From an uncultured Pelagibacteraceae bacterium (lineage in GTDB: Bacteria; Pseudomonadota; Alphaproteobacteria; Pelagibacterales; Pelagibacteraceae): a stretch of DNA of 64,000 bases. Both the position numbers and the translations under genes were made by a program. Position 1 is the stretch's first letter. Every line of letters starts with the position of its first letter. Below, one piece after another: positions 41,507-46,965 of the stretch. The notes under the pieces are model-generated. The model saw only the letters and a list, made by a program, of their open reading frames with translations, was not told where the DNA came from and ran no database searches. The DNA lies in contig CACDGO010000003.1 of NCBI GenBank assembly GCA_902552345.1, positions 56,221 through 120,220 of the forward strand, read 5' to 3'.

Positions 41507-42066
41507 AAATTACTGCTAATGAAATAAAACCTGGAATGATAATAGAGCACAAAAATGATTATTGGAATGTTCTAAAAACTCAACATGTAAAACCAGGCAA
41601 AGGTGGTGCTTTTAATCAAGTAGAATTGAAGAGTGTTGTTAAGGGTATAAAATTAAACGAGAGATTTAGATCTAGCGAAACTGTTGAAAAAGCAGAAGTT
41701 GACGAAAAAAAATTTAATTTTTTATATATAGATGGAGAAAATTGCCATTTTATGGATAACAAAACATTTGAACAAGTAGAAATTCTTAAATCAGTTGCTG
41801 GAGAACAATACAAGCTTTTAAAAGAAAATTTAGAAGTTACTATTTCCTTTATGGAAGAAAAGCCAATTTCGATAGAGCTTCCTAATAATATTGAATGTAA
41901 AATTGAGACAACTGATGCTGCTATAAAAAATCAAACAGCCTCTTCTTCATATAAACCTGCAATACTTGACTGTGGTATCAAGATTAATGTCCCCCCATTT
42001 ATTGAAAGTGGTGAAAAAATTATAATAGATACACGAACACTTGAATATGTAAAAAGAGTTAATTGA
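41503..42066 (+). CDS. efp: Elongation factor P
   Basis: HVKPGKGGAF, YKPA, VPPFI..GE. Confidence 0.97.
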   Translation: MKITANEIKPGMIIEHKNDYWNVLKTQHVKPGKGGAFNQVELKSVVKGIKLNERFRSSETVEKAEVDEKKFNFLYIDGENCHFMDNKTFEQVEILKSVAGEQYKLLKENLEVTISFMEEKPISIELPNNIECKIETTDAAIKNQTASSSYKPAILDCGIKINVPPFIESGEKIIIDTRTLEYVKRVN

Positions 42067-42866
42067 TGAGATTAAATTCTCCACAAATAAATATAATAAC
42101 TAAAGCATGTATGAAAGCCTCAAGGTCTTTAATAAGAGATTTTGGCGAAATTGAAAATTTACAAGTTTCAACAAAAGGTCCTGGAGATTTTGTAACGTCT
42201 GCAGATAAAAGGACTGAAAAGATTCTAATAAATGAGTTGCAAAAAGCTCATCCTGATTACGGTATTATAACAGAGGAAACTGGACTGATAAATAAATCAA
42301 ATATTAAAAATAGGTGGATAATTGATCCAATCGATGGAACAATGAATTTTTTAAATGGTATACCACAATTCGCAATTTCTATTGGATATGAAGAAGATAA
42401 TGAGATCAAATGTGGGGTAATATTTAATCCAATAATGAATGAAATGTATTGTGCAGAAAAAGGAAATGGAGCATTTTTGAATAATTCCAGAATAAGAGTT
42501 TCAAACAAAAGGAAAATAAAAGATGCATTGCTTGTAACAGGTGGCCCTAAAGGAGAAAGTAAAATTAAAGATAAAATCTTTTCAGAATATATTAATGTTT
42601 CAAAAAATGTATCAAACGTAAGAAAGTTTGGTAGCGCTGCACTTGATATGGCCTACGTAGCATGTGGGAGATTCGACGGGTACTGGCAACGAGAACTTAA
42701 TTATTGGGATATAGCCGCTGGTATAATTATTCTCAAAGAGGCCGGTGGTTTTGTTGATTTTTTTGAAGAAGATACAACCTCACCCTTAAAAAAGAATATT
42801 TTAGCTACTAATTCCAATATACATGAAGATTTAAGGGAACTTATAAATAAAAAAGATATTGAGTAA
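42063..42866 (+). CDS. suhB: Inositol monophosphatase family protein SuhB
   Basis: DFVT.AD, WIIDPIDGTMNF, GSAALD, WDIAAG. Confidence 0.94.
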   Translation: MMRLNSPQINIITKACMKASRSLIRDFGEIENLQVSTKGPGDFVTSADKRTEKILINELQKAHPDYGIITEETGLINKSNIKNRWIIDPIDGTMNFLNGIPQFAISIGYEEDNEIKCGVIFNPIMNEMYCAEKGNGAFLNNSRIRVSNKRKIKDALLVTGGPKGESKIKDKIFSEYINVSKNVSNVRKFGSAALDMAYVACGRFDGYWQRELNYWDIAAGIIILKEAGGFVDFFEEDTTSPLKKNILATNSNIHEDLRELINKKDIE

Positions 42867-42894
42867 AAACTGGTATTAATATAAAACTCCGCAC

Positions 42895-43119
42895 ATGAAA
42901 AAAAACATACACCCAAACTATCATAAAATAAAAGTTGTAATGACCGATGGCTCAGAGTTTGAAACAAGATCAACTTGGGGCAAAGAAAACGAGGTGCTTA
43001 AATTGGATATTGATCCAAAATCACATTATGCATGGACTGGGGGGGCCCAAAAAATTTTGGATAAGGGAAGAGTAAGTAAGTATAATAAAAAGTTTAGCAA
43101 TTTAAGATCGAAGAAATAA
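42895..43119 (+). CDS. rpmE: 50S ribosomal protein L31 (Cys-free type)
   Basis: [25 protein letters not shown]. Confidence 0.96.
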
Positions 43120-43123
43120 ATTT

Positions 43124-43708
43124 ATGTCTGAGACACCATTTATGCCAAAAGCTACAGCTGTTTGGTTAGTTGAAAACACAACATTAACTTTTAAACAAAT
43201 AGCTGAGTTCTGTGATTTACATGAGCTTGAAGTGAAAGGTATCGCTGATGGAGATGTTGCAAGAGGTATTAAAGCCTACAACCCCATACTAGCTGGGCAA
43301 CTTTCGAGAGAAGAAATTGAAAATTGTTCAAAAGACTCAAAAAGAAAATTAAGTTTATTGAAAAAATTAGATGAAGTTGAGGTAAAAGAGAGAAAAAAAC
43401 CAAAATATACCCCGCTTTCAAAAAGACAGGATAGACCTGATGCAATTTTATGGTTATGCAAAAATGCATCTGAGTTATCTGACGGTCAAATTTCAAAACT
43501 TGTTGGAAGCACAAAAGGTACTGTCTCTTTGATTAGAAAAAGAAGTTACTGGAATTTTTCGAATTTAAAACCTAGAGATCCCGTAATTTTAGCTCTATGT
43601 ACTCAAGAAGCGTTTCAAAAAAGTGTGGACAAGGCAAAAAGAAGAATAGAAAGAGAGAGAAAAGCTAAAATTAGAGAAGAAAAAAAGGCTCAAGCCGCTT
43701 CGCTATAG
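43124..43708 (+). CDS. DUF1013 family protein (TrcR-like)
   Basis: PFMPKATAVWLVENTTLTFKQIAEFC, YTPLSKRQDRPDAI, DPV.L.LC. Confidence 0.88.
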   Translation: MSETPFMPKATAVWLVENTTLTFKQIAEFCDLHELEVKGIADGDVARGIKAYNPILAGQLSREEIENCSKDSKRKLSLLKKLDEVEVKERKKPKYTPLSKRQDRPDAILWLCKNASELSDGQISKLVGSTKGTVSLIRKRSYWNFSNLKPRDPVILALCTQEAFQKSVDKAKRRIERERKAKIREEKKAQAASL

Positions 43709-43748
43709 ACAAACAATCAATCAAGTGATACCAAGCTGAAAATTAACT

Positions 43749-43754
43749 GGAGGT
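43749..43754 (+). promoter_or_regulatory. Perfect Shine-Dalgarno upstream of rpsU
   Basis: GGAGGT followed by TTTT and then ATT. Confidence 0.8.
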
Positions 43755-43758
43755 TTTT

Positions 43759-43953
43759 ATTAAAATAGAAGTAAAAGATAATAATGTAGAACAAGCAATT
43801 AGAGTACTTAAAAGAAAATTGCAAAAGGAAGGTTTTTTCAAAGTTATGAAAATGAAAAGCACATACGAAAAACCTTCTGAAAAAAAAAAGAGAGTTCAAA
43901 CTGAAAATCAGAAAAGAATAAAAAAACTCCAAAAACTTAAAAACAGATACTAA
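43759..43953 (+). CDS. rpsU: 30S ribosomal protein bS21, apparent ATT start (missed by the ORF track)
   Basis: Manual translation IKIEVKDNNVEQAIRVLKRKLQKEGFFKVMKMKSTYEKPSEKKKRVQTENQKRIKKLQKLKNRY*; DNNV.QA...LK.K.Q.EG and YEKPS are S21 hallmarks; in-frame TAA at 43744. Confidence 0.93.
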   Translation: MKIEVKDNNVEQAIRVLKRKLQKEGFFKVMKMKSTYEKPSEKKKRVQTENQKRIKKLQKLKNRY

Positions 43954-43978
43954 ATTTATTTTAATGAGAGGATTAACA

Positions 43979-44182
43979 ATGCCATCTGGTAAAGTAAAAT
44001 GGTTTAACGCCAAAAAAGGTTATGGGTTTATTACTGACGATAAAACTAAAAAAGATATTTTTCTTCATGTCTCTGCTCTTGAAAGCTCTAAACTTAGAGT
44101 TCTTAAGGAGGAACAAAAAATTTTTTACGATATAAAAGAAGAAAAAGACAAACTACAAGCAATAAATATAAAAAAAAAATAA
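43979..44182 (+). CDS. Cold-shock domain protein
   Basis: GKVKWFNAKKGYGFI (RNP1), DIFLHVS (RNP2); ATG 43979 behind GAGAGGA. Confidence 0.94.
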   Translation: MPSGKVKWFNAKKGYGFITDDKTKKDIFLHVSALESSKLRVLKEEQKIFYDIKEEKDKLQAINIKKK

Positions 44183-44187
44183 TTTAT

Positions 44188-44264
<77 letters not shown>

Positions 44265-44275
44265 AATTTATAATT

Positions 44276-45148
44276 ATGATTAAGGCTAAGATAAAGAGAT
44301 TTTTAATTAATAATTTTCCTAATTTTTTCAAAATTTTACAAATTATAAAAAATGATATTTTATTTAGTAAAAAAAAAAAGAAATTTTCCGGATGGGGTTT
44401 AGAAACTTCATTACTTTTACCTTGGGACGATGAGAAAATATTTCATAATGAAACATCGAAAGGTTATATAAAAAGTAAAAACAAGCTTAATAAAAAAATT
44501 TTAAATAAAGAGTTTTTTTTAGGTCAAATTGAAAACTATAAAGAAAACTTATCTTTTGAAGATGTTCTCAAACATTTCGATGAATTAACTTACAGACATT
44601 ACGTAGTTTATTACAGTGCTATCACTGCTTATCATAATACAAGAAGTCGAAATATAGTTGAGTGTGGAGTAGCGCACGGTATGGCTATTTTTTTTGCTAT
44701 AAATGCTTTTTTAAAAGATGATAGTTATAAAGTTTACCTCTACGATAGTTGGGAAAGTATGAGGGGTGATGAGCTCAAAACAGAAAAAGATTTATTAAAA
44801 AAAGGTGAATACGATTATTTAGATATTGATGCTACAAAAAAAAATCTAAATGAATATTTTTCTAATATTGTTTTTAATAAGGGGTATATTCCTGATTCTT
44901 TTAAAAAATCTAAAAATCCTGATGATATCTCCTGGTTACATATAGATTTGAACTCTTCTTATGCAACTAAAAAAGCTTTAGAATTTTTTTATGAAAAGAT
45001 TGAAAAAAATGGAATCATCTTATTTGATGACTATGCTCATGATTCATATGAAGATACGAGGATAGTTATTGAAGAATTTTTTAAAGATAAAAAAATTAAT
45101 TTTCTACAATTAATGACTGGTCAAGTAATAGTAACAAAAAAAGAATGA
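44276..45148 (+). CDS. TylF/MycF/NovP-type O-methyltransferase
   Basis: IVECGVAHG, YLYDSWE, KGYIPDSF, LHIDLNS, GIILFDDY. Confidence 0.87.
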   Translation: MIKAKIKRFLINNFPNFFKILQIIKNDILFSKKKKKFSGWGLETSLLLPWDDEKIFHNETSKGYIKSKNKLNKKILNKEFFLGQIENYKENLSFEDVLKHFDELTYRHYVVYYSAITAYHNTRSRNIVECGVAHGMAIFFAINAFLKDDSYKVYLYDSWESMRGDELKTEKDLLKKGEYDYLDIDATKKNLNEYFSNIVFNKGYIPDSFKKSKNPDDISWLHIDLNSSYATKKALEFFYEKIEKNGIILFDDYAHDSYEDTRIVIEEFFKDKKINFLQLMTGQVIVTKKE

Positions 45149-46965
45149 ATAATAGAATTGTGAACATAACTATAATTGCTCACGTCGATCACGGGAAAAC
45201 AACTTTGATTGATAATTTAATGAAACAAAGTGGCACATTTAGAGAAAATGAAAATATTGCTGAACGAGTGATGGACTCTGGTGAATTAGAGAAAGAGAGA
45301 GGTATTACAATTCTTGCAAAACCAACATCTATTAATTGGAAAAATTCAAGAATTAATATTATTGATACTCCAGGACATAGAGATTTTGCTGCAGAGGTTG
45401 AGAGAGTTTTACATATGGCTGATGGTGCCCTTTTATTAATAGACTCTGCAGAAGGAGTAATGCCTCAAACAAAATTTGTTTTAGCTAAAGCTCTAAAACA
45501 AGGATTAAAGCCAATTGTTGTAATTAATAAATTAGATAAAACTGATCAGAGGGCTAATCAAGTTTTAGATGAAACTTTTGATCTTTTTGTAAGTTTAGAA
45601 GCTAACGAAGAACAGTTGGATTTCCCTATTTTATATGCAAGTGGTAGGTCGGGATGGGCTTCAAAAGATATTAATGGACCAAGAGAAAATCTAGTACCAT
45701 TATTAGATGAGATTGTGAGTCATGTTCAACCAACAAAGTTAGATAATGCTAAACCTTTTGCTATGCTTTCGACTTTACTTTATGCTGACAATTTTTTAGG
45801 AAGAAGTTTGGTTGGTAAAATTGCTCAAGGGACAGCGAAAGCAAATCAAAAAATTAAAGCAATTAATCTTAATGGAGAGAAAGTCGATGAGGGAAGACTT
45901 ACTAAAATATTTAGATATGAGGGAACAAAAAAAGTTGCGATTGAGAAAGGACAAGCTGGAGATATAGTAATTGTTGCAGGATTAGAAAAAGCAAACGTGG
46001 CTGATACGATATGTGATTTAGATGTAGATAATCCAATAAATGCTACACCAATAGACCCGCCTACTATGTCTATAACAATTACTGTAAATAGTTCACCTTT
46101 AGCCGGTAAAGAAGGAAAAAAATTAACTAGTACACAAATTAGAAATCGTCTTATTTTAGAAGCTGAGAATAACGTAGGTATTACATTTGAAGAAAATAAA
46201 GATAAAGATGCTTTTTTTATCAGTGGAAGAGGTGAATTAATGTTAGAGATTCTTTTAACTCAAATGAGACGTGAAGGATTTGAAATGACAGTTAGTCCTC
46301 CAAAAGTTTTAATTAAAAAAGATGATCAGGGTAATAAGATTGAACCTATAGAGGAAGTAACAATTGATTTAGAGGAAAAATTTTCTTCGAAAGTAATTGA
46401 CTCCATGAATAGAAGGAAAGGAAAGCTGATAGATCTTAAGGACACTGGAAAAAACAAAAAAAGATTAGTGTTTCACGCTCCAACTCGTGGCTTAATGGGT
46501 TACACTAGCCAATTTTTGACTTTAACAAAAGGCACTGGAGTTATTAACAGAATTTTTCACTCTTATGATGAGTACACTGGAGATATGGATGGTAGGAGAA
46601 ATGGTGCTTTAATTTCTATGGAAAACGGAAGAGCTGTTGCATTTGCCATTTATAATTTACAAGCTCGTGGAGAGATGTTTGTCACACATAATGATCCAGT
46701 ATATGTAGGGATGATAGTAGGTTTGTCTTCAAAAAGCGGTGATCTTGAAATAAATGTTTTAAAAGGAAAAAAATTAACAAACATGAGGACTCAGGGAACT
46801 GATGAAAATATAGTTCTAACTCCAGTTAGAAAAATGGCAATAGCTGAACAATTGAGTTTACTCAATACTGATGAAGCTTTAGAAATTACACCAATTGCAT
46901 GTAGGTTAAGAAAATTAATTCTAGATCCACATGAGAGAAAAAGGCTATCAAGGGCAAAAACTTAA
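45145..46965 (+). CDS. typA: Translational GTPase TypA/BipA
   Basis: AHVDHGKTT, ERGITILAK, DTPGH.DF, GRGEL, KKLTNMR. Confidence 0.97.
   Translation: MNNRIVNITIIAHVDHGKTTLIDNLMKQSGTFRENENIAERVMDSGELEKERGITILAKPTSINWKNSRINIIDTPGHRDFAAEVERVLHMADGALLLIDSAEGVMPQTKFVLAKALKQGLKPIVVINKLDKTDQRANQVLDETFDLFVSLEANEEQLDFPILYASGRSGWASKDINGPRENLVPLLDEIVSHVQPTKLDNAKPFAMLSTLLYADNFLGRSLVGKIAQGTAKANQKIKAINLNGEKVDEGRLTKIFRYEGTKKVAIEKGQAGDIVIVAGLEKANVADTICDLDVDNPINATPIDPPTMSITITVNSSPLAGKEGKKLTSTQIRNRLILEAENNVGITFEENKDKDAFFISGRGELMLEILLTQMRREGFEMTVSPPKVLIKKDDQGNKIEPIEEVTIDLEEKFSSKVIDSMNRRKGKLIDLKDTGKNKKRLVFHAPTRGLMGYTSQFLTLTKGTGVINRIFHSYDEYTGDMDGRRNGALISMENGRAVAFAIYNLQARGEMFVTHNDPVYVGMIVGLSSKSGDLEINVLKGKKLTNMRTQGTDENIVLTPVRKMAIAEQLSLLNTDEALEITPIACRLRKLILDPHERKRLSRAKT

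Follow-up and report, generated by a model that had tools for sequence, protein, structure and literature searches.

The rpsU gene of this Pelagibacteraceae genome is a genuine bS21 gene whose start, as judged by comparison with related loci, is an AUU codon standing behind a strong Shine-Dalgarno (SD) sequence. We read this arrangement as a selected, SD-dependent start that is probably sensitive to IF3 and would throttle bS21 synthesis, a reading that we hold to be reasonably probable. The gene lies in a window of 64,000 nucleotides (C3:56221-120220) of an assembly of 0.998 Mb with 29.9% G+C that is 86% complete. Unless stated otherwise, coordinates are those of the window and features are on its forward strand.

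The rpsU reading frame opens with ATT

The rpsU coding sequence (43759..43953) encodes a bS21 of 64 residues, with ATT as initiation codon (43759..43761), 63 sense codons after it and a TAA stop at 43951-43953. An in-frame TAA (43744..43746) closes the frame five codons upstream of the ATT and is directly followed by a CTG at 43747-43749, while five T residues separate GGAGG from the ATT. The preliminary description of this DNA had reported an rpsU without ATG, GTG or TTG at its N-terminus, with the TAA at 43744 and the ATT at 43759 aligned with Met1 of homologues, and these coordinates proved correct. The product matches the Pfam profile Ribosomal_S21 (PF01165; 57.5 bits over residues 3-54, against a curated cut-off of 27 bits) and the bS21 and bS21m chains of the PDB (E 9e-6 to 1e-3). 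The first canonical in-frame start is a TTG at 43819, the use of which would cut 20 conserved residues. The genome carries a single rpsU, and a search of the 86%-complete assembly found no second copy. Two GenBank MAG records (GCA_028408795.1 and GCA_028355255.1) also let the CDS begin at the ATT, the annotated product having 64 residues with an initial M; if the AUU is decoded as Met, the expected N-terminus of bS21 would be (f)Met-KIEVKDNNVEQAIR.

We considered whether the true start could lie elsewhere, at a CTG or TTG four codons upstream or at an ATA in codon 3, or whether the ATT could reflect an assembly error or a decaying gene. An in-frame TTG does occupy position -12 in 22 of the 69 related loci with ATT or ATC, and several public gene callers pick upstream codons. 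Against this, the -12 codon, which overlaps the SD and has no SD before it, reads CTG here and TTG, CTG, AGG, CAG, TGG, CCG, CGG, TCG, TAG or TAA across genomes; because its identity varies and includes stops (in 5 loci), it is not a conserved start. With these variants and with the TAG that genus g12 carries at -6, between SD and ATT (aggaggTAGgttATT), the N-terminus at CTG 43747 that had been named beforehand as the competing possibility becomes very unlikely. Relatives have 1-16 codons between the upstream in-frame stop and the start, and 44 of the 69 loci with ATT or ATC contain no ATG, GTG or TTG between that stop and the start codon. Twelve genomes carry ATG exactly at the ATT position, ahead of nearly the same protein, which pins Met1 to this codon. 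A sequencing error, the other doubt raised at the outset, is excluded, because the arrangement recurs in 69 related genomes and at least 120 independent metagenome contigs; the gene also keeps an unbroken, conserved reading frame. A start at another codon, a misassembly or a decaying gene is, in our judgement, highly improbable.

Start codon and SD sequence are exchanged as a pair within Pelagibacteraceae

We compared 81 rpsU loci from the GTDB-style family f1, covering about 16 genera. The genomes G068, G232 and G406, flagged as unpublished, entered tallies, and none of the statements on sequence made here draws on them. The codon at the ATT position is ATT in 66 of them, ATC in 3 and ATG in 12. 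A strong SD (-9.3 to -12.4 kcal/mol) precedes the start in every ATT/ATC locus, mostly as GGAGG-N5, which bears out for this family the conservation of GGAGG-N5-ATT that had been put forward as a check for Pelagibacterales. The ATG loci all lack an SD (-1.5 to +1.8 kcal/mol) and have A/T-rich leaders (e.g. aaaaatatttATG). Mixed states, that is a weak start without SD or an SD with ATG, were found in none of the 81 family loci. An exact-pattern scan of metagenomes, which covered the SD+ATG and SD+ATT patterns, each with the conserved codons 2-8, returned no contig for GGAGG-N5-ATG and at least 120 contigs for the same pattern with ATT. The comparison supports a functional tie between the strong SD and the weak start, the pair being swapped, as far as these loci indicate, only as a unit.

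All 12 ATG loci belong to genus g8 (Pelagibacter), and compared with congeners of the ATT type their bS21 is changed only at residue 10 and at a few other conservative positions. This clade probably holds Pelagibacter ubique HTCC1062 and HTCC7211. In a locus tree built with the SD and start columns left out, 11 of the 12 ATG rows form one clade (SH-aLRT 98) and L039 is not resolved; the ATG state would have had one origin, perhaps with recombination into L039, or two origins. Only one evolutionary switch, or perhaps two, underlies the split between loci with an SD (69/69 for weak starts against 0/12 for ATG), and Fisher values for it overstate independence, the loci being kin. Since one Pelagibacter clade has replaced it, the AUU+SD arrangement is dispensable. 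The exchange provides a natural experiment, in which AUU with SD and AUG without SD stand before an almost identical protein inside one genus, and the feature would go unseen in work on HTCC1062 and HTCC7211 if these are the ATG-type genomes.

AUG is avoided as the rpsU start across Alphaproteobacteria

The phenomenon, on the evidence of further loci, is much wider than SAR11. In f176, the sister family within this order (three genera), the rpsU start reads ATA in all 10 loci sampled (L385-L394), with the layout AAGGAGG, 8 nt, then ATA-GTT-GAA. Because upstream stops are present or a canonical start is absent, we assign these genes an AUA start; in two f176 genomes the in-frame stop is a TAG that overlaps the SD.

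Outside the order, starts were chosen by a rule (position relative to the VRDNN block) and not by experiment. Under this rule, 67 loci from other alphaproteobacterial families gave GTG 22, TTG 15, ATG 14, ATC 10, ATA 3, ATT 2 and CTG 1, and 77 loci from named records gave GTG 54, ATG 12, CTG 5, TTG 4 and ATC 2, with ATG in only 26 of the 144 (L085-L153, L184-L263). Fisher values for these counts are descriptive, the loci again being kin and the starts rule-based, but the contrast is large. Unambiguous ATC, ATT or ATA cases, with a stop just upstream, are L087, L137, L139, L143, L152, L115 and L116. GTG prevails in records of the Rhizobiales, Acetobacterales and Rhodospirillales type and occurs, for example, in Bartonella, Nitrobacter, Gluconobacter, Bombella and Thalassospira, and ATG is seen mainly in Sphingomonadales and Rhodobacterales. 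ATC (gacc-ATC-GTT-CAR) and CTG starts (e.g. Roseospira goensis) recur across several families. The control gene rpmE, a neighbouring ribosomal gene, has ATG in 29 of 29 families sampled. Avoidance of AUG is, by this comparison, a class-wide property of rpsU, with AUH as its extreme form in Pelagibacterales.

These distributions bear on the possibility of compensated drift, in which AUU with SD and AUG without SD would be interchangeable means to the same constitutive bS21 level and would have no regulatory role. Such an explanation would suit the clean swap of the two states before an almost unchanged bS21, the failure to find a structured leader or any further regulatory element, and the apparent presence of successful cultured strains in the ATG clade. 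The step from ATT to ATG, however, is one base change, yet AUH persists in two families of the order, and for this reason selection for the weak codon itself looks likely. Non-ATG codons also dominate rpsU class-wide while rpmE is always ATG, and drift would have to account for the lack of mixed states in 81 genomes and of SD+ATG in the metagenome scan of SD-bearing patterns. We consider it rather unlikely, yet a serious rival. Comparative genomics has generally observed that start codons and SDs evolve in compensation for each other's strength, and the loci studied here resemble this trend in that weak starts have a strong SD, strong starts lack one and both change together; they differ from it in that the pairing is all-or-none, gene-specific and stable across the order, and not a genome-wide statistical trend. 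The weak start would thus be kept by selection and not by accident, because AUU, AUC or AUA extends across the order, AUG is avoided across the class and AUG appears only with loss of the SD.

In the full-text literature that we searched, the coverage of which is incomplete, we found no description of an AUU, AUC or AUA start of rpsU in SAR11 or in Alphaproteobacteria; searches on non-canonical starts of rpsU/S21 or on SAR11 surfaced only work on Flavobacterium and Francisella. The initial statement that nothing of this kind had been described for SAR11 holds in that no paper was found, but not for the databases, since in GenBank the start at ATT is already part of the annotation.

An S21 of typical alphaproteobacterial type, with 81-90% identity to the alignment query, is also encoded on two contigs labelled as Paceibacterota and Bdellovibrionales MAGs (L185 and L208), probably owing to mis-binning.

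The rpsU SD stands out in a genome where SD sequences are rare

The SD core GGAGG occupies 43749..43753, 5 nt before the start, and GGAGGT extends to 43754. SD energies were computed against the tail of the genome's own 16S rRNA (...GGAUUACCUCCUUUCU), in which the anti-SD is intact and contains CCUCC, and the rpsU duplex reached -10.0 kcal/mol. This value ranks 11th of ~1009 crude gene calls and is thus in the top 1%; the call set numbered 1012 (first canonical start of ORFs of 80 aa or more, overlapping ORFs excluded, 96% of the genome covered). GGAGGT had been singled out as the strongest SD noticed in the window, and this was confirmed among the crude calls within the window, although not genome-wide. 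The accompanying remark that most genes have a weak SD or none also agrees with our results, the genome median being -1.3 kcal/mol against -1.25 in a mock region farther upstream. Sites at -8 kcal/mol or below are about twofold in excess (41 genes against 20 mock sites), and for this reason ribosomes probably read SDs. SDs in this genome are rare, yet present.

The main ribosomal protein cluster (C6:40157-56023 of the genome, outside the window), the genes of which we named from gene order and N-termini, shows where they occur. Internal genes of this cluster have SD-like sites (rplD -9.4, rplX -10.8, rpsH -8.4, rplO -9.5 and rplQ -9.3 kcal/mol), as does rpoA (-10.1 kcal/mol), a non-ribosomal gene inside it, and the operon-first genes rpsL, rpsG, rpsJ, rplC, rpsM and rpsK have no SD (about +1.6 kcal/mol). 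SDs in this SD-poor genome may serve mainly for internal re-initiation. A genome-wide scan for an SD-like motif followed by ATT, ATC, ATA or CTG with no canonical alternative left rpsU as the sole real gene. Two further hits, at C1:196085 and on the minus strand of C1 at 185185, were rejected as shadow ORFs within opposite-strand genes.

A strong SD on rpsU in an SD-poor genome recalls Flavobacteriia, in which rpsU is autoregulated through sequestration of the anti-SD by bS21, a mechanism established in Flavobacterium johnsoniae (PMC7797042, PMC9976891). Transferred to SAR11, bS21 would hide the anti-SD, and subunits without bS21 would prefer the SD-bearing rpsU mRNA. The likeness extends to the same gene, a short leader, the standout SD (top 1% here) and an intact, canonical anti-SD. 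Several differences argue against such feedback. In Flavobacteriia rpsU has an ordinary start, and a weak one is not reported as a requirement there, whereas here it is AUU or AUC. The flavobacterial bS21 has a less basic C-terminal domain and the signature Tyr54, which stacks on A1534, and both are missing from this bS21: the 24 residues after KPS include 11 K/R and 2 D/E, and Arg53/Ile54 occupy the position of Tyr54 (the offset being taken from the aligned ranges, 7JIL chain z residues 4-56 with query residues 3-55). Furthermore, strong SDs are not confined to rpsU, given the sites at -8.4 to -10.8 kcal/mol before rplD, rplX, rpsH, rplO, rpoA and rplQ, and the twofold excess noted above suggests that ribosomes do read SDs. 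Together with the dispensability of the arrangement, these differences make feedback of the flavobacterial kind improbable. Of the autoregulatory circuit suggested in the preliminary description, the coupling of a strong SD with a weak start stood, and the flavobacterial-style bS21 feedback was weakened or found no support.

rpsU has a conserved putative promoter and a short unstructured leader

Upstream of rpsU, a -35-like hexamer TAGACA (43706..43711) overlaps the TAG stop of the preceding TrcR-family gene, and an extended -10-like element, TG-a-TACCAA (43726..43734), follows 17 nt after it, a spacing that is conserved. In an alignment of 21 loci from about 14 genera, the ATG clade included, no upstream block is better conserved than T(A/G)GACA, and T(A/G)GACA-N17-TAnnnA, with TG two bases before TAnnnA, is kept across genera at a fixed distance, while the stretch between the -10-like element and the SD varies across loci. 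This conserved T(A/G)GACA/TGnTA element is probably the rpsU promoter, with a -10 unlike TATAAT; a simple sigma-70 consensus scan did not call it. Taking it as the promoter, the SD-bearing leader would be ~18 nt long (43741..43758).

The segment 43735-43830 folds at -5.7 kcal/mol (z +0.97 against shuffles), and an Rfam scan of 42000-46000 found only the tRNA at 44188-44261. Given a fold no better than that of shuffles and the lack of any Rfam match to the region, we consider a structured autogenous leader unlikely, and with its variable sequence the region does not belong with the structured ribosomal-protein leaders. We also rejected a small upstream ORF (ATG AAA ATT AAC TGG AGG ... TAG) seen in some genomes of genus g1, as its ATG is not conserved and reads CTG, TTG, ATA or ATC in other genomes, this window among them.

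The gene order is rpmE, the TrcR-family gene, rpsU, a cold-shock-domain gene and the tRNA, and the order TrcR-rpsU-csp was also found in two GenBank MAG records. The cold-shock-domain gene (43979..44182; Pfam CSD, 81.9 bits) begins 25 nt after the rpsU stop, no terminator-like site was found between the two genes, and it is possibly co-transcribed with rpsU. Its ORF opens with an ATG at 43964, and the conserved protein (MPSGKVKWFN) starts from the ATG at 43979, behind gagagga.

Control of a bS21 gene by its own 5' region has a proteobacterial precedent in Francisella tularensis rpsU2, where a leader-dependent autogenous control sets the production of bS21-2 (PMC13374519). That control differs from what is proposed here, as it acts on mRNA abundance and stability and involves a longer 5' UTR and paralogues (PMC13374519), whereas SAR11 has one copy of rpsU and an unstructured leader of ~18 nt.

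A weak start as a possible throttle on bS21 synthesis

bS21 sits at the mRNA exit, in the anti-SD region, is the last protein to join the 30S subunit and exchanges in vivo, and its gene is carried by marine phages, the pelagiphage HTVC008M among them; how the cell sets its level is for these reasons a live question. Initiation complexes formed on AUU are rejected by IF3 in E. coli, and this discrimination holds down the AUU-initiated genes infC and pcnB. The E. coli infC gene starts at AUU (PMC7797042). The SAR11 rpsU resembles both genes in having AUU at the Met1 position without a usable canonical alternative, in keeping the weak codon among relatives (ATT/ATC in 69/81 family loci, ATA in 10/10 of the sister family) and in having a usable SD, and the weak codon may limit translation as it does there. 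In contrast to infC, the product here is bS21 and not IF3, so that any IF3 loop would be indirect, and dependence on IF3 is proposed by analogy.

The mechanism that we favour would run as follows. Transcribed from its own putative promoter with a short unstructured leader, the rpsU mRNA would recruit the 30S subunit through the SD 5 nt upstream of the start, offsetting the poor codon-anticodon match at AUU. By analogy with E. coli infC and pcnB, initiation would be held down and would be sensitive to start-codon proofreading by IF3, and bS21 synthesis would then vary with the condition of the initiation machinery and would not simply proceed at a default rate. A throttle sensitive to IF3 or to initiation fidelity is the simplest reading because IF3 of E. 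coli rejects AUU complexes. Two observations tell against it: the ATG clade lives without the arrangement, and infC of this genome starts at GTG. The latter gene (C2:~74121-74181, minus strand, locus L051, outside the window) has its GTG directly after an in-frame TAA, and no ATG, TTG or ATT was found before the conserved infC N-terminal block in this genome. The classic AUU start of infC thus seems to be absent from it, and since infC opens with GTG, an IF3 loop of the infC type is not evident.

A bolder extension, which we regard as possible but on balance doubtful, is that rpsU acts as a selected start-codon sensor in Pelagibacterales and, in a weaker form (GUG, UUG, AUC, CUG), across most Alphaproteobacteria, bS21 being made in proportion to initiation that escapes IF3 or occurs on bS21-free 30S subunits. 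If true, this would amount to a homeostatic circuit for the last-assembling protein of the small subunit, and the most abundant heterotroph of the ocean would actively regulate its bS21 stoichiometry, hence its ribosome heterogeneity. The clade to which HTCC1062 and HTCC7211 appear to belong would have lost the circuit.

S21 in a pelagiphage and rpsU in public annotation

The S21 of pelagiphage HTVC008M (L264, NC_020484.1 91228-91431) is 56% identical to the bS21 of the window, and its gene has an ATG behind aaaggg, so the AUU+GGAGG of the host type is not copied. HTCC1062, the recorded host of HTVC008M, would be of the ATG/no-SD type if G120 is that strain, as we presume.

Other public calls of the rpsU product (P0001, P0012, P0017, P0021, P0040 and P0113) have wrong N-termini, with assorted upstream codons and 66-96 residues, one of them opening at L from a CTG. 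P0001 has in addition an internal duplication of ~30 residues, apparently an artefact of assembly. Gene callers that are blind to AUH starts mis-call or lengthen rpsU, a marker gene, in SAR11 assemblies.
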